A stretch of DNA of 64,000 bases from Eledone cirrhosa. Its lineage: Eukaryota. The notes beneath the pieces were generated by a model. That model saw nothing but the letters and a program-made list of their open reading frames with translations. It was not told the origin of the DNA and searched no databases. The stretch spans positions 1 to 64,000 of the forward strand of contig CAXHJY010000489.1 in assembly GCA_964016885.1 (NCBI GenBank). Reading direction: 5' to 3'. The first letter of the stretch is position 1, and each line of letters opens with the position of its first letter. Both the position numbers and the translations under genes were made by a program. Below are positions 3,943 to 22,390 of this stretch, piece after piece.

Positions 3943-3991
3943 ATTTTTTTAATATAAGGAACTGTTTCTTTGTTTATTCATTATTTTATTA

Positions 3992-4052
<61 letters not shown>

Positions 4053-5409: not shown

Positions 5410-5865
5410 GTGTGTATATATATATATGTACGCACAAGTATATATATACATATATAAAATATACATATATATATAAAACATATATATATAAAGTATATAT
5501 ATACATTAAATACACATATATACATAAAACATACATACATATAAAATACATACACATTTAAAATATACATATACACATATATATACATATATAGAGAGAG
5601 AATATACATACATATACACATAAAATACATATATATACATATATATATATAAAATACATATATATATATATATACACATATATAAAATACACATATATAC
5701 ACACATAAAATATATATATATAATATATAAAATACACATATATATACACACATAAAGTATATATATATAATATATAAAATACACATATATACACACATAA
5801 AATATATATATATAATATATAAAATACACATATATACACACATAAAATATATATATATATATATA
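5410..5865. repeat. TA/CA compound micro/minisatellite
   Basis: Repeats of aaaatacacatatatacacacataaaatatatatatataatatat. Confidence 0.9.
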
Positions 5866-5995
5866 TGGAAAATTATATTTAAATTGTTGGGTTACAACTA
5901 GTAAATATTTATAACTGATATAAAAGCACTCGACAAGTATTTGGAGTATATTTACAATATTAAATAAATGGAAACTATATTTATAAAACCATATT

Positions 5996-7413: not shown

Positions 7414-9613
7414 CTACATTTTAAATTTAAATTTATATTTAAACGTTGAGTTTAATCTATGTTTGCAGCAACTGAATAAATTTGTCCGTAGATTAAGGGA
7501 ATTTTTAGATTTTAGTATAAAGAATATCTCCTCTGCGCAGAGGTCACATGTCTCAGAGGATGAATTAAAAGGAATCCCTCTTGAGACTATATTCCAAGCC
7601 GTCGAATATCTAACGTTATCTAGCTTAAGTTGCCAGAGTACGCCTGATAGTGCCGTTGAAGATTTTTTGCTTGGATCTGTGAAAGAATTCTTGTGGTTAT
7701 TATAGCGAAGTTTAAATTCCGTCGATGTGGAACCGACGTAGTTAAAAGAATTAGAGTCAGTATTAACATTACAATTGTATACTATATTTTTAACTAAGCA
7801 GTTGTTATTTAACGGACATTTAGATCTATCTCTACAGTTACATTTGTTAACTTGTATATTATTTATGCTATTATCACTAGGTTTTAAGTTCCTATTATTT
7901 ATTCTATTAATATTTTGTGCTAAATTTTTGGTGGATGAGTAGGTTAATTTTATTGTATGTCTATTGAAAATTGAGTGATACCTATGTGTTCTAGGGAAGC
8001 GATTATCAAGAGCTTTAAAAAATAGTTTAGCGATGTGGGTTTTAATGTTTAGTGAGAAAGGGGGGGCAAACCAAATTATGTTCCTAGTTCTATTTCTTTT
8101 TTGGCCTTTGGAATTATTGTAATGCTTTCTATTATAGTTGTTAAGGTTGTTGCCGTAATTAAAATAGTTGTTATTTTGTTTAGTTTGTCTATCATTATCT
8201 ATGTACACAATCTTATCAGCATATCCTGCTCTAGCTAATGCTTCATTGTAGTATTGGGCTTTTTCGTCGAAAATCTTTCTATTCGACGAGATCCTAGAGA
8301 TACGTTTTTGAACAGAGTTTACTATAGTGTTTTTGACAGATCTGGGGTGGTTAGAGTTAAAGTTGACATAGTTTAAGTTTTCATTCAACTTGTGAAAAGG
8401 ATAGTGAAGACATGTGTTGAGATTTAATGTTATATCTAGGAAATTGACTATTCTATGGTTGTTCTCAATTTCTATTTTAAGATTAAAGTAATTAAAAAAT
8501 TGTGTAATTTGTTTACATTTTCTATTTAGTTCAGAGTTATTATTATCAATAAGTAAAAGCATGTCATCTCTATATAAACCTCCGGTAGTACCAGGTATTT
8601 TCCTATGTAGCGAATTGATTAAAAATAAGCCCACAAGGTCAGTTACCTGAGCTGAGTCGGATGATCCCATAGTAATGTCAAAATTGCTATCTCTATCTGC
8701 TCTGGTCCATAGTTGGTCATTAAATTCTATCAAAGTTTTCCTAGCCGATAATATAATATGCATTTCATTGCTAGTTAGGTCAGTATGTTTGAATGCGTAA
8801 TTTAGTGCCTTATTTAGTAGATTAGGGGTAATAGAAGAATAATAGTTAGCTATATCAAGTTGAATAAACTTATTATTATTGTTATATTTAATTTGCTTAA
8901 ACCACTCAACAACCTCTCCAGTTCCCTTCCACAAGCTCAGGTTAGATAAACAATCCAAGTTCTTAATTTGCTGTATCACCCTGTCAAGAATGTTTTTGCT
9001 TAATTTGCCCAGGTCCGATCAATCTAACTGGCAAGTCATTTTCAAAATTCCTCTTGTGATCTTTCATATTGATCTTCGGTTTCCTGGGCACGAAAGGTTG
9101 TGTTCTGTTCTCAATTTCCAACTCGTGCATTATACAAGATGCTTCGACATTCATTTTCTCAAGCTCGGCCTTATCTGCTACCTTGTACTTTTTCCTCAGC
9201 TCTTTCAGTATGAGGCCATTATACATGTCTTTCTGCATTCCATAGAGGTTGTTGGTCTTGTCAGATTTCACCAAGATCTTCTCAGTTCTCTCTAAGCTCT
9301 CAATGTTATCCTTAATGCCTTTCAGATATTCCTGGCCTTTGAAGTTTCTCTTGAATTTGACCCCTTGTATGATAGAAATTATATCGTTTTCAAAGTCAGA
9401 TAAAAGTTTGTTAGGGGGTGGATTTCTTTTAGATTTGAAAACTTTGTTTAAGTCCGAGACATTTTCATTTATATTAGATTTATCAAAGTGGAATGCTCGC
9501 CACCTGATTCTCCTTATAAAAGAGTCAGATTTATCTATTAATTGTTTTATAAAGTCTTTGTTTCTAGGTAGAGGTATGTCTTTTAAAGAGGAAGTAATCT
9601 TAAAGAATTCCAT
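7414..9613 (-). pseudogene. PLE RT-GIY-YIG ORF with one frameshift near 9015
   Basis: ORFs 8984..9613 and 7414..8979 join as RL[..]SDLGKLSKNILDRVIQQ, versus RLINPAKSEVG in family 3. Motifs: QLDIANYY, GSSDSAQVTDL, YRDD, CNCRDRSKCPLNNNC, YVGSTSTEFKLRY, CDLC. Confidence 0.93.
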
Positions 9614-9774
9614 TTTTCCAGTTATAATATAAAGCGCTCAACGGTATTGGAGCAAGATACATGGAAAATTATATTTAAATTGTTGGGTTACAACTGATAT
9701 AAAAGCACTCGACAAGTATTTGGAGTATATTTACAATATTAAATAAATGGAAACTATATTTATAAAACCATATT

Positions 9775-9840
9775 TATTTCATTATATATATTTCAGGGAT
9801 ATCATATTAACAATATGCTATGCCTTCCTCAGACAAAATA
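9775..9840 (-). ncRNA. Minimal hammerhead ribozyme (PLE2, 5' pseudo-LTR copy)
   Basis: Same sequence as 5996-6061. Confidence 0.85.
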
Positions 9841-9969
9841 CAATATTTTTTTTTCTCTCTTTCTTTCTCTCTGTGTACAATTTTTTCACTGCCAATTCAA
9901 CTTTTTCAAATACAAGTCGATGTTGTTACGGTATGTCGAATCTATTTATCTATAAAACTGTTTATATTG

Positions 9970-10035: not shown

Positions 10036-10079
10036 AATATGGTTTTATAAATATAGTTTCCATTTATTTAATATTGTAT

Positions 10080-10928: not shown

Positions 10929-13470
10929 TTAGGTAAGGCGGGTCTTCTCTATTACTGAGTACCGCCAAAGGTTTCGGTCCAGTGACATTGTCTTGGAGAG
11001 GTGTAAGTGTGTGAGGTCGGAATTTATCAAGTCGTCCCAGGTTCTTCTGGGTCTGCCTACTCCGTGGCTACCGTGCCTGCTCCGTGGCTACCGTGCCCTG
11101 CACTTTTTTATACAGCTGTCGTCTTTCATGCGCATCACGTGACCATACCAACGTAGCCTTCTCTCGAGTAAACAACATCTGATCCCTCTTATTTCTAATT
11201 TTTTCCTTAGTTTGTTTATGCTTTGCCGTTCACGTATATTACTATTACACATCTAGCGGAGCATGCAAGCTTCGTTCCTCTCTAGTCTGCGTATATCCTC
11301 TGCACACAATGCCCAGGTCTCACTGCCATGCAACATTGCTGTTCGTATGCAGGCATCATACAACCTGCCTTTCATTTTTAGGGAGAACCCTTTAGCGGCT
11401 AATAGTCATATAAGCTCTCTGAACTTTTTCCATCCAGTTCTGACTCTAGCTACTGTACTTTCAGAGCACCCTCCCCCACTGCTGATTTTGTCCCCCAGGT
11501 AACGGAAGCTGTCCACTATTTCTATAGAACGCTCTGCGCAATTGAAAGAGCTAGTATTTCGTGGGCACTTGCTGCTACTTATTGCACCAGAGCACCGGCC
11601 ACATGTAAAATCTATGTTCTTAGTTAGCTTACCTGTGATCCCACTACATCTTTTATGCACCCATACTTTGCATTTGGGACATAAAATGGAGTTTCTACCT
11701 ACGCCTTTCCTACACACTGAGCATGGCCATTTCCCGGAAGGGACCGGCGCCTTATTTTCTTTCCTACAAACTAGAACTTTAGTCTTAGCCAGGTTAATTT
11801 TAAGGCCTTTTGATTCTAGGCCTTGCTTCCATGTTTGGAATTTCTTCTCTAGCTCAGCCATTGATTCAGCTATGAGCGTTAGATCATCTGCGTATAGGAG
11901 TTCCCATGGGCAGCCAGTCTTGAACTCCTCTGTTATAGCCTGAAGGGCAATAATAAATAGTAGGGGGCTAAGAACAGAGCCCTGATGGACACCAACTTTT
12001 ACGCTAAACTCTTCACTATATTCGTTGTTAATTCTAACCTTGCTGACTGTTTCTTTATACATGGCTTGTATAGCTCTCACAAGCCATTCCTCAACACCTA
12101 GTTTTCTAAGAGCCCACCAGATAATGGAACGGGGGACTCTGTCGAAGGCTTTCTCCAAGTCGACAAAGGCTAAGTATAGGGGTTTACTTTTAGCCAGGTA
12201 CTTCTCCTGTAGTTGTCGTACAATGAAAAGAGCGTCTGTGGTACTTTTGCCTGACACAAACCCGAACTGCATTTCATCTAGATCGATTCTCTCTCTGATT
12301 AGTTGCACTATTACTTTTTCCGTGACCTTCATGACCTGGTCGATTAATTTAATGCCTCTATAGTTACTCCTATCTAGGGCATCTCCTTTACCCTTGTAAC
12401 AGTTAATGATGATGCTGTTATGCCAGTCCTTCGGAACAACCCCATTCTGTATGACTTGGTTTACTATCCGGGTGACCATGGTGTGTCCCACCGTTCCAGA
12501 GGCCTTCAGCATCTCAGCAACTATTTCCGAAGGCCCAGCCACCTTACCCGTCTTCATATCTTTGATTGCCTTACTTATTATACTACCTTCAACTAACACT
12601 GCTGGTCCCTCTATTGGATTGATCTGGGGGAGACTATCCTTCTCCCATTTATTCTCCTCATTTAGTAGCCTCTCGTAGTGACACTTCCAAGCGACCTTCT
12701 TATCAGCGTCAGTGATGGCGAGTACGCCATCATCATTTAGTACACACTTCTCCTCAACAATATCACGGTTTTCCTTGACACATTGCCTAGCAATCCTGAA
12801 CACCTCACGTTTTTGGTCCTCGCGTTGTAGAACATGCTTGAACTTTCTTTCCTCTGCTTCCCTTCTTGCGAAGTACACTTGTCTCCTAGCTTCGCTCCTG
12901 GCCACTTGATAGTCTTCTCTACTTCCCCCATCCCGCCATACTTTCCAAGCCTGCTTTTTGGCCTTAATCGACTCCTCCACCTTAGTGTTCCACCACCATG
13001 TTACTCTCCTCCTGCCTATAGGCCTACTTCGTCTGCCGCCGTCAGCAGGTTTGCTTTCAGGAATTCCCACTGTTCCTCTATATTGTACGACTCTAAATGC
13101 GCTTCCTTACTGTCGAAAGCATCAAGTAATATGCTTTGAAATTTATTTCTGGATGTGGGGTCCTTTAGCTTCCATATTTTTCTCCTGAGGATAGTCCTCT
13201 TCTGCTGTCGAGTACGTCTCGTCCTGACTATGAGGTCGCTAATTATCAGTCTATGTTGGGAGGTGCATTCTTCATGGGGGAGGAATTTAGTGTTTACAAC
13301 AGTCACTCTGTCACGTCTTCTGGTAAGGATATAATCTACCTGGCTGGTATGTTCCCCTGATCTGTAGGTGATCAAGTGATTGTCTCGTTTTTTGAAGTTA
13401 GTGTTACAGATTGTTAGGTTATTTGCGTCACAGAATTCCAGGATTCTGGAGCCTTCCTCATTTCTAGTAC

Positions 13471-13474
<4 letters not shown>
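10929..13474 (-). mobile_element. RTE-clade LINE, 5'-truncated and frameshifted (APE C-terminus + RT with Cys-rich insert)
   Basis: FGTRNEEG...SQVDYIL...SQHRLI (APE). YRGIKL, FVDLEKAFDRV, GVHQGSVLSP and LLYADD (RT). CSVC...CPKC..WVHKRC insert. Frameshifts at ~13040 and ~11406, and a 20-bp tandem duplication at 11060-11099. Confidence 0.92.
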
Positions 13475-13510
<36 letters not shown>

Positions 13511-13614
13511 AATGAAGTAATTCCATCGGAAAAGTCCAGGAAAAAAGAGTGCTCTATGTAAGCAACAGAGCTTAATTATTATTATTATGTAATAAACAAC
13601 ATAAGGCAATTATA

Positions 13615-17931: not shown

Positions 17932-17987
17932 TCATTCTGAGGATTGAAAGCAAAACCTTTTGCTTTTAAGAAACCACTGGTAAATGG
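17932..17987 (+). ncRNA. Minimal hammerhead ribozyme B (PLE3, GUA site)
   Basis: TCATT CTGAGGA ttgaaagcaaaa-cc-ttttgcttttaa GAAA CC-ACT-GG TA AATGG. ACCACTGGT is quasi-palindromic. Predicted cleavage after A17982. Confidence 0.85.
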
Positions 17988-18208
17988 TATAATTGCCTTA
18001 TGTTGTTTATTACATAATAATAATAATTAAGCTCTGTTGCTTACATAGAGCACTCTTTTTTCCTGGACTTTTCCGATGGAATTACTTCATTTATACAGCT
18101 CCAACCGGGATTGATCGCAGCATATTCGATATTACATATACGATTGGCACTTTCCAGCCCGATTAGTTGAGCACTCTACAGTTTTCAGGAATTTAACCAA
18201 CATACACC

Positions 18209-20341
18209 ATGGACCTTTATGATTTGGATTATTCTATCAAAAACATACCCACTCCTTCCAACACAACATACACCAAAATCCTCATTGATAAAATCGAGCA
18301 AGTCGTTAAAAGAATGAGATGGAAGGCAATGGTTTACGATGGACTATTCAGTGCTGATACTAAAGATAATTTTGACATTAAATCCCGTAAATATCCACCT
18401 AGAATTAAAGACATGGCCAACTTCGAATTAGACCTCGTTAATCTAATTAGTGATATCAAATTTCGTAAGTACAATAATAATTTTCAAACTAAACTTTCTC
18501 ACGATATCTCTAATTTTAGAAATTCTACAAACACTTTTGTTCTTTCTGATAAAACCAAAAACCTCTTTGAAGTTAATAGTAATTTGTATAACCAACTTTT
18601 AACTAATAGTATTACCAATAAATATCAATTAACTAATAATAATAGCTACAATACTATCAATAAAGAAGCTAAAGAACTAGCTAGTTCTTTACAAATAGAT
18701 AACCGGATTGAAAGCTTAGCTAAGCGTAAAGCATATATTACCCTTAAAGACCATAAATTGGACTTTACTAATCGACCTAGTTGTAGACTGATTAACCCGG
18801 CTAAATCCGAGGTTGGCCTTGCTAGTAAGAAAATCTTAAGAAAAATAATTATCCAAATTAGAACTAACACTGTCCTTTCACAGTGGCTAAATACTTCCTC
18901 TGTTATTTCTTGGTTCAATAGTATACAAGGTAAAAATAAGTGTAGATTTACGCAATTTGATATTGTCGATTTTTACCCTTCTATTACCGTTTCCTTATTA
19001 ACTAAAGCCTTAGATTTTGCAAGACCCTTCATTAATATCTCAAAATTAGAAGAGGACATTATCTTTCATGCCAGAAAAACTTTACTTTTTACTAATGATA
19101 AGATTTGGGTTAAAAAGTCAAACCCTGAAAACTCTTTCGATGTTGCAATGGGTTCTTATGACAGTGCGGATGTGTGCGACTTAGTAGGATTATTCCTTCT
19201 CCACACACTCAAAGAGAAATTTCCGTCCCATAATATCGGTTTATACCGTGATGACGGATTAGCAGTTTCTCATACCACCAATGGCCATAATCTTGATAAA
19301 TTCCGTAAAGATTTAATTAGTACCTTTGCTAATCTTAACCTTAAAATTACTATAGATACGAACCTTACTAATGCTAACTTCCTTGATATTAATCTTGATC
19401 TACTTACTGCCTCTTTTAAACCCTATCATAAACCTAATGAAAATCTTAGGTATATACACAAAGAGTCTTGCCATCCCCCTATAGTTTTTAAAAATCTTAT
19501 TCCTAACATTAGCCGTAGGATTTCTACTTTATCTTCGTCTATAGACATTTTTAATAAAGCCGCCCCTTATTATAATAAAGCCCTTAAGAACAGCGGTTTT
19601 ACAGAAAATATTTCTTATTTACCTATTCCCCCCCCTAAAACTAACCATAATAACAGGAAAAGGAAGATTATTTGGTTCACACCCCCCTTCTCTCAAAATG
19701 TCAAAACTAATGTAGGAAGGAAATTCCTTGAACTATTAGACAAACATTTTCCTCCTATTCATAGATATTATAAGATTTTTAATAGGAATGTAGTTAAGAT
19801 CAGCTACTCTTGTTGTCCATCCATGAAATCCAAAATCACCAGTTCAAACCGTACGAGGATAAATCCAGGATGCAGTTGCAGGAAGCCGGATGAATGCCCA
19901 TTGCAGGGTAAATGTAAAACAAAATCTGTCGTTTATGAGGCTAAAATAACGCCAGTTATCAACAACCAGCCAGCCAGAAGCGAGCGATATGTCGGTATGA
20001 CCCAGGACAGGTTTAAAACCAGATTTTACTCACATGTCGCTTCTTTTAAACACTCAGATAAACGAACATCAACGGCCCTCGCAAGTAAGGTATGGGATCT
20101 CAAGGATAGTAATATCCCGTACTCTATTGATTGGTCTATATTAGACCATTCGAGGGAGTACCAAAGGGGCACAAAGAATTGTTCTTTGTGTACCACAGAA
20201 AAGTATAGGATTTTGCTAAACTTGAGAGACACTTCCGCTTGCCTTAACTCTAAGACTGAGATCTTCAGATGCTGTCCTCATCTGAAATCGCATCTGATCT
20301 GTAACTGGATTGACACTCCTACGATAAATCAACCGCCTTGA
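18209..20341 (+). CDS. Penelope-like reverse transcriptase + C-terminal GIY-YIG endonuclease, 710 aa, intact
   Basis: ATG in a CACCATGG context. Motifs: SDKT, RLINP, QFDIVDFYPSI, GSYDSADVCDL, YRDD, NFLDI, CSCRKPDECPLQGKC, VVYE...YVGMT...FKTRF, CSLC. Confidence 0.95.
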   Translation: MDLYDLDYSIKNIPTPSNTTYTKILIDKIEQVVKRMRWKAMVYDGLFSADTKDNFDIKSRKYPPRIKDMANFELDLVNLISDIKFRKYNNNFQTKLSHDISNFRNSTNTFVLSDKTKNLFEVNSNLYNQLLTNSITNKYQLTNNNSYNTINKEAKELASSLQIDNRIESLAKRKAYITLKDHKLDFTNRPSCRLINPAKSEVGLASKKILRKIIIQIRTNTVLSQWLNTSSVISWFNSIQGKNKCRFTQFDIVDFYPSITVSLLTKALDFARPFINISKLEEDIIFHARKTLLFTNDKIWVKKSNPENSFDVAMGSYDSADVCDLVGLFLLHTLKEKFPSHNIGLYRDDGLAVSHTTNGHNLDKFRKDLISTFANLNLKITIDTNLTNANFLDINLDLLTASFKPYHKPNENLRYIHKESCHPPIVFKNLIPNISRRISTLSSSIDIFNKAAPYYNKALKNSGFTENISYLPIPPPKTNHNNRKRKIIWFTPPFSQNVKTNVGRKFLELLDKHFPPIHRYYKIFNRNVVKISYSCCPSMKSKITSSNRTRINPGCSCRKPDECPLQGKCKTKSVVYEAKITPVINNQPARSERYVGMTQDRFKTRFYSHVASFKHSDKRTSTALASKVWDLKDSNIPYSIDWSILDHSREYQRGTKNCSLCTTEKYRILLNLRDTSACLNSKTEIFRCCPHLKSHLICNWIDTPTINQPP

Positions 20342-22319: not shown

Positions 22320-22347
22320 TATAATTGCCTTATGTTGTTTATTACAT

Positions 22348-22390
<43 letters not shown>

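Follow-up and report, generated by a model that had tools for sequence, protein, structure and literature searches.

Penelope-like elements of the window

The window, the whole stretch of 64,000 nucleotides analyzed here, comes from Eledone cirrhosa (contig CAXHJY010000489.1). A self-BLAST of positions 1-27000 reveals three related retroelements, PLE1, PLE2, and PLE3. The PLE3 ORF (18209..20341, + strand) encodes a Hydra-clade reverse transcriptase (RT) with a C-terminal GIY-YIG-type endonuclease and contains the motifs RWK (41), DKT (118), YRDD (350), CxCX5C (559, CSCRKPDEC), and YVG (598; P0001 numbering). The Hydra clade is defined by RWK, DKT, the CxCX5C linker, the C-terminal endonuclease, and a single ORF (PMC8557442; here and below, PMC numbers refer to excerpts of the papers), and the PLE3 ORF is assigned to it because it has the defining motifs. 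On these motifs of PLE3, it and the related PLE2 and PLE1 are Hydra-clade Penelope-like retrotransposons (PLEs). The (TA)n flanks and the partial tandem and inverted arrangement by which members of the clade are recognized are also found in the window elements.

The predicted structure of the PLE3 protein has a pLDDT of 90, and its best fold matches are telomerase RTs. PLE RTs are the sister group of telomerase RT. Near the N terminus of the Hydra proteins, the segments KNIP and RMRW are invariant. At E<=1e-20, 1,510 of 8,000 scored candidate proteins are homologous; a Pfam search with the PLE3 protein gave no match.

A hammerhead-like motif (CTGAGGA, stem II, GAAA, palindromic stem III) is visible by eye in PLE2 at 9770..9845 (- strand), separate from the hairpins described below. 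In PLE3, positions 17937-17949 (+) read CTGAGGA-TT-GAAA followed by a hairpin, i.e., a hammerhead core without stem II. The PLE3 ribozyme may be dispensable, as this family has many intact, near-identical ORFs despite the absent stem II. An Rfam scan of window positions 1-26000 showed neither a hammerhead nor a match at the hairpins among the 150 of 182 matches listed, and there was likewise none at the hairpins in eight loci of other animals. The Rfam matches seen were sub-threshold and microsatellite-driven only.

Two further features lie in the window. Endonuclease/RT reading frames at 11406-13480 (-), which we take to be LINE-like, are truncated at the (TA)n adjoining the PLE3 arm. From about 26000 to 63500 there is a large tandem array of ~5 kb units with long open frames on both strands.

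A covarying hairpin present twice in each family

Each Hydra family has two copies of a hairpin motif, A and B, 55-135 nt apart and just 5' of the ORF. The consensus is GCUC-Y(stem-loop)R-UH-GAGC-RCU. PLE3 hairpin B (18098..18175, +) is composed of GCTC, a long apical arm, a TT bulge, GAGC, and ACT. PLE2 hairpin B (9633..9653, -) reads GCTC C..G TT GAGC GCT and ends about 20 nt before the ATG at 9613. The original prediction had quoted these two hairpins (18098-18172 on the + strand, 9653-9636 on the - strand), and both are present. The second, upstream copy in each family was revealed by loci from a genome pattern search. PLE3 hairpin A (GCTC TGT..ACA TA GAGC ACT; 18031..18054, +) had gone unnoticed, and PLE2 hairpin A (ACTC CAA..TTG TC GAGT GCT; 9704..9726, -) has its outer pair changed on both sides. 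In PLE1, both hairpins have a TT bulge, a trailing triplet that is the variant TCT, and apical arms of about 70 and 100 nt. Apical arms of 60-100 nt are tolerated, one of them with a TA microsatellite (PLE1 hairpin B at L372 and L374; window 18098-18175), and among the long-arm hairpins conservation is limited to the hairpin base. The short form of the motif has 465 matches in the genome, mostly copies of two repeat families, versus 2 for a reversed control pattern. Folding energies are unremarkable (z -0.2 to -1.2).

The fold was examined across families. MAFFT misaligned these variable-length hairpins, and pairing was therefore counted on anchored positions. Only the inner positions test pairing because the search fixed GCTC and GRGC-RCT. 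Among 93 distinct hairpins, the base after GCTC and the base three before GAGC are C-G in 56, T-A in 30, T-G in 2, and other in 5, so that the covariation proposed as a check on the element is seen at this pair (C-G 56, U-A 30). The two skipped bases are TT in 63, TC in 17, TA in 10, and other in 3. In 86 hairpins with a T bulge and a short loop, the first upper pair is Watson-Crick in 84 (98%, versus 0-16% in slid controls), and the second and third are so in 68% and 70% (versus 12-34%). On a quick tree of 44 RTs, judged by eye, the first pair switches on both sides on at least 5 branches, with 88 of 88 paired. The lower stem has also changed on both sides, to ACTC/GAGT in PLE1, PLE2, and the ORF-less family introduced below. 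Compared across families, the hairpins favor a bulge of 2 nt in the 3' strand. The fold drawn earlier, an AAC/GTT pairing with a bulged 5' C, is possible in only 23 of the 93 hairpins.

A TAR-like U.A-U arginine pocket fits the UH-GA/UC geometry and is a lead only. Further two-sided changes of the lower stem, GCAC/GTGC (L223, L226) and GCCC/GGGC (Hydra-1_Crog), break it. Which strand folds was tested by wobble asymmetry. G.U outnumbers A.C by 17 to 9, a lean toward the sense strand that is not significant (p=0.17).

In other animals, 93 loci were fetched, comprising 48 distinct leaders with at least 140 nt upstream. Strict motifs number two in 26 leaders (one of these a double count), one in 15, and none in 7. 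By eye, 9 of the 15 one-motif leaders have a degenerate second copy and 3 start just before B, and 4 of the 7 motif-free leaders are not true leaders. The spacing from A to B is 55-83 nt, and hairpin B lies 35-70 nt 5' of the ATG in 25 of the 26 two-motif leaders. Coding sequence totaling 193 kb has a single strict motif; on the antisense strand (302 kb) there are 12 loose matches, of which 2 are true inverted copies. Of the 6 Hydra consensus sequences in File S7 with displayed ends, 5 show the motif (PMC8557442). Five 9-mers give 8 matches in the supplement of that paper; 4 are in Hydra sequences, all of them hairpins, and the 4 outside Hydra have no partner arm in the displayed text. The expectation that the motif would occur in other families is borne out by its recurrence in Hydra elements of other animals, and on these sequences it is clade-wide. 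The Hydra elements at L219-L233 are in contigs filed as bacterial genomes, mostly MAGs; the contigs are probably animal host DNA in those bins.

A tandem repeat family without an ORF carries the motif as well. Its unit is about 1.9 kb, with a longest frame of 92 aa, no similarity to PLE proteins, and a hammerhead-like core that is visible by eye (L097, L100, L106, L113, L116, L120, L284-L303). It has both hairpins and the same two classes of ends as the PLEs (2,317 anchor matches), and it is likely a retrozyme-like passenger moved by Hydra proteins. At L297, L327, and L329, this family is interrupted at an AT-rich A site by ends that start with ACTAG and have a GC-rich hairpin nearby, which we take to be Helitron-like ends.

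A conserved, covarying structure is the mark of a cis RNA element of target-primed reverse transcription, and the comparison points to such a structure here. Two further marks of a cis element, a fixed position relative to the insertion ends and retention by non-autonomous elements, are also found.

Ends of copies and their pairing

Sampled ends sit about 1-12 nt 5' of hairpin A or B. For PLE3 and PLE2, ends were counted by hand in the first 100 matches listed for each anchor, all on contig C1. With the PLE3 anchor before A (first 100 of 4,980 matches), 55 copies end before A, 43 run through, 1 ends inside, and 1 is unclear. With the anchor before B (first 100 of 3,375), 91 end before B and 9 run on. 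The clustering of 3' ends at the hairpin, anticipated for genomic copies, is therefore seen at both sites (55/100 at A, 91/100 at B, in the first 100 listed). For the PLE2 anchor (first 100 of 19,764), 57 end before A, 42 run through, and 1 ends inside; every PLE2 run-through terminal copy examined ends before B.

The termini in the window follow the same map. The PLE3 inverted arm ends at B (13505..13511, -), 6 nt short of the hairpin. The position assigned to this terminus was right; the last 6 nt are CATACA, while internal copies have TATACA. The PLE2 B terminus (5865..5874, -) is borne out at 5865, 7 nt before hairpin B. Positions 22353 and 10078 had been regarded as exceptions to the clustering, but both end just before the unnoticed hairpin A. 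The PLE3 A terminus (22342..22353, +) stops about 9 nt before the expected start of hairpin A and is followed by (TA)n, and the A terminus of the PLE2 inverted arm (10067..10078, +) stops 5 nt before hairpin A. The PLE1 A terminus is at 3986..3997 (+), and in run-through copies elsewhere hairpin A follows 4 nt further on.

PLE1 was set beforehand as a test, and both of its hairpins were found 4-10 nt after two end classes. Across 30 loci, 20 ends belong to the first class, 11 to the second, and 2 copies run through. Hairpin A begins 4 nt after the commonest first-class end, and hairpin B follows the second class. In the other animals, 19 of 29 alignment ends sit 1-7 nt before A or B; the other 10 lie elsewhere, 3 of them being cross-family hammerhead matches. 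In contigs from two public runs, summed depth drops 40- to 60-fold at 18100 and loose ends occur at 18017 and 18095-18097, depth data that are not independent because they possibly share the same source.

Each hairpin lies 3' of the point where copying starts and is excluded from the copy end that it defines. Every B-ended copy runs through hairpin A, e.g., the PLE3 B-ended arm, where copying passed through a copy at 13548..13571 (-), and the PLE2 B-ended body, with a copy at 5925..5947 (-). Several copies have their start ~10 nt 5' of hairpin B, directly behind a TA-rich tract (the L144, L149, and L180 leaders; L105:1490-1540), which suggests 5' junctions or self-insertions at the priming site.

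Inverted insertions almost always have one end at A and the other at B. This holds for 38 of 39 in PLE3, the exception being B/B (L072/L074). The 39 comprise 13 top matches, 14 further divergent pairs <7 kb, 10 from the B end, and 2 from the A end. The search for partners from the B end covered 14 regions, of which 10 were paired and 4 had no partner. The pairing is A+B in 13 of 13 verified PLE2 insertions, 4 of 4 PLE1 insertions, and 10 of 10 insertions of the ORF-less family; in the last, L297 is ambiguous and was set aside since one end abuts a Helitron-like end, and L338 is unresolved. All 22 resolvable PLE2 pairs in the anchor listing are A plus non-A. In another animal, L222 has one A+B and one A/A insertion. 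Independent site choice would give A+B in about half; against this 50%, a subset with 35 of 36 yields p=5e-10, for pairs that were often hand-picked from lists of the first 100 places on contig C1. Six pairs (L278-L283) were picked as A+B and are uncounted, and an A/A pair at L378 was dropped as its inverted repeat takes in the flanks.

A stronger form of the rule, with an A and a B end in each insertion, was rejected. Among 20 PLE3 A ends chosen for having no listed partner, 18 lack a second arm within 8.5 kb, so that in many insertions no second arm is visible. One-sided tails have been noted before (PMC8557442, Fig. 2 legend; PMC3846280).

Either arm of an insertion can be the longer. The A arm exceeds the B arm in the window (2009 B, 6754 A) and in L137, and is the shorter in L136 (3824 B, 1531 A); neither arm is therefore simply a copy of the other. 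Near-equal inverted arms, up to 2494/2496 nt, are seen at L121, L127, L128, L132, L265, L273, and L281, so the two cDNAs often terminate at a common position. A hammerhead cut that sets arm length was considered and rejected, as the short arms have no single stop site.

The B ends have a junction signature. Internal PLE3 copies read TTTATACA before hairpin B. By hand counts, CACA occurs at 47 of 91 PLE3 B ends versus 0 of 55 A ends; among the 91 B junctions, 8 have CATACA and only 1 has the exact template. The (CA)n at B ends occurs where the template has ACA. Such patterns are consistent with ACA being copied repeatedly and the DNA then re-annealing in a forward position through DNA-G/RNA-U pairs. 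LINEs, too, show slipped initiation. The T-to-C changes would represent DNA G opposite RNA U, which points to a sense template. A motif that acts as sense-strand RNA is favored by these changes, and the wobble asymmetry is, as noted above, not significant.

Short CACA forms are present in insertions with identical arms (window, L121, L136, L137). Tracts of at least 5 CA units occur at 17 of the 91 B ends, mainly in somewhat older, more diverged copies, so later slippage may have lengthened them; arm dating does not separate long (CA)n tracts made by the RT from those expanded later. At L331, a 15-bp target duplication is separated from the element by the changed bases, which fall outside the duplication and so are not target-derived. 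The proposed annealing to (TA)n holds only in part, as an insertion with a 15-bp target duplication shows no homology at its B end. Ten tries at finding target duplications gave one clear case, and empty target sites were not found among the fetched loci.

Probable priming at the two hairpins and its alternatives

The hairpins in the sense RNA are probably docking sites, each of which would make one RT start just 5' of it. The original prediction of a cis element that positions priming is upheld in that the motif appears clade-wide and covarying, is kept by the ORF-less family, and has a copy at both classes of terminus. The motif is 3' of the start and absent from its own copy end, and would thus be supplied by the next tandem unit. 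Transcription of one unit would continue into the leader of the following unit, leaving both hairpins downstream of the copied sequence. The element protein would bind the GCUC/GAGC stem, the UH bulge, and the trailing RCU, and so place the 1-12 AU-rich upstream bases in its active site.

An extension of this reading, put forward tentatively and at slightly less than even chance, is a programmed twin priming in which two RT-endonucleases sit on the two hairpins of one RNA, prime at sites A and B, and copy 2-3 bases reiteratively as telomerase does. On the docking reading, too, the endonuclease would cut both strands of AT-rich DNA; site A would serve to extend one 3'-OH and site B the other, probably with two protein molecules sharing one RNA. 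The two sites would prime independently, since either arm can be longer, and two molecules on one RNA would be the simplest reason for the A+B rule. The outcome is head-to-head arms, one ending at A and the other at B, with the A-B interval as a "tail" present at one end only. Early synthesis would slip, ACA being re-copied as (TG)n and re-annealed through G.U pairs, which would leave (CA)n and T-to-C changes at B ends.

The same map of termini would be expected if the hairpins instead directed RNA cleavage or 3'-end formation just upstream and the RT started at free 3' ends in the manner of LINEs, and the spread of ends over several bases agrees with this. Cleavage does not by itself explain one A and one B end per insertion (38 of 39), and in Poseidon, a relative, the RT initiates internally without any cut in the RNA (PMC11167929). 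This reading is unlikely.

The second arm could also be a self-primed copy of the primed arm made on an antisense template, the hairpin stopping synthesis as a boundary. Such fold-back was proposed for rotifer Penelopes from palindromic junctions (PMC3846280), and many short insertions do have near-equal arms. B-ended arms, however, hold hairpin A and long bodies hold both, so neither hairpin blocks synthesis, and either arm may be the longer (window; L136). On an antisense template, the junction T-to-C changes would require C.A pairs, and B ends almost never consist of the complete template plus extra CA. Fold-back is accordingly judged quite unlikely.

It is improbable that the GIY-YIG endonuclease reads the motif on single-stranded DNA and cleaves an intermediate of transposition directly ahead of it. 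In favor, an earlier view attributes the tail to resolution by the endonuclease (PMC8557442), PMC11167929 cites a requirement of the D. virilis endonuclease for the tail, and the strand asymmetry of wobble pairs is not significant. Against this, (CA)n lies exactly at the junction and only where the template has ACA or AC, the signature of polymerase initiation, and a fixed double-stranded site is ruled out by loops that range from 8 to about 100 nt. A role of the hairpins in translation control or packaging, with ends clustering through annealing of AT-rich flanks to (TA)n, is scarcely credible: B does lie near the start codon in 25 of 26 two-motif leaders and AT-rich bases precede the hairpins, but many longer AT/TA tracts in the UTRs are unused as ends, the ORF-less family keeps both hairpins and ends at both, and the A+B rule is left unexplained.

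L1 twin priming uses an opportunistic second site, and its segments are non-overlapping. Unlike in L1, both Hydra sites are motif-fixed and the two arms copy the same region. The likeness would be that both 3' ends of the break prime on one RNA, which gives an inversion in L1 (Ostertag and Kazazian, as described in PMC2246262). The 3'-UTR stem-loops of R2 (PMC11194090) and the 3' stem-loops of LINEs are comparable as RNA structures that select and position the template for target-primed reverse transcription, but these stem-loops sit within the copied RNA, 5' of the start, while the Hydra motif is 3' of it. Helix II of ciliate telomerase resembles the motif: it is a short helix adjoining the template, conserved at its base and variable at its top (PMC4993307). 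The telomerase boundary element is 5' of the template and stops the RT (PMC4993307). The Hydra motif is not a boundary of this type because it is 3' of the start and is read through by the RT, and the analogy with a telomerase template boundary falls, as B-ended copies include hairpin A.

The closest PLE precedent is Poseidon_Ac, whose RT uses two internal start sites in vitro, elongates both strands of the DNA, and depends on RNA lying 3' of these sites (Frangieh 2024, PMC11167929). As proposed for Hydra elements, two adjacent internal RT starts bound a tail. Poseidon_Ac differs in that it belongs to another clade, its sites are inside the ORF in one AC-rich stem-loop, and the excerpted paper describes no conserved, duplicated, covarying motif and no rule of one site per end (PMC11167929). 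The Hydra clade of Craig 2021 shares the protein motifs, (TA)n flanks, apparently hammerheads, and an often one-sided tail with the elements studied here, whereas the tail is 30-40 nt there and 55-135 nt here (PMC8557442). The words "hairpin" and "stem-loop" have 0 occurrences in the available main text of that paper. A literature search, with subscription journals mostly outside its coverage, did not turn up the motif or any rule of one site per end. Internal initiation at two PLE sites was already shown in vitro, though without a link to a conserved duplicated motif (PMC11167929). A paired RNA motif that marks both Hydra initiation sites is apparently undescribed.

How PLEs choose their template and come to have inverted arms with a one-sided tail is a long-standing question, named as a next task by Craig 2021 (PMC8557442). 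A 20-nt motif, present twice and with one site per end, makes template choice directly testable by mutation. The motif is a simple finder for the ends of Hydra elements and ORF-less passengers, and a putative minimal cis signal for studying target-primed insertion. The slippage signature is available for comparison with telomerase RNA. The closest mobile relatives of telomerase gain a candidate for a defined internal RNA anchor. If true, programmed twin priming would account in one design for the inversion of the arms, the tail on one side only, and the requirement for tandem copies.
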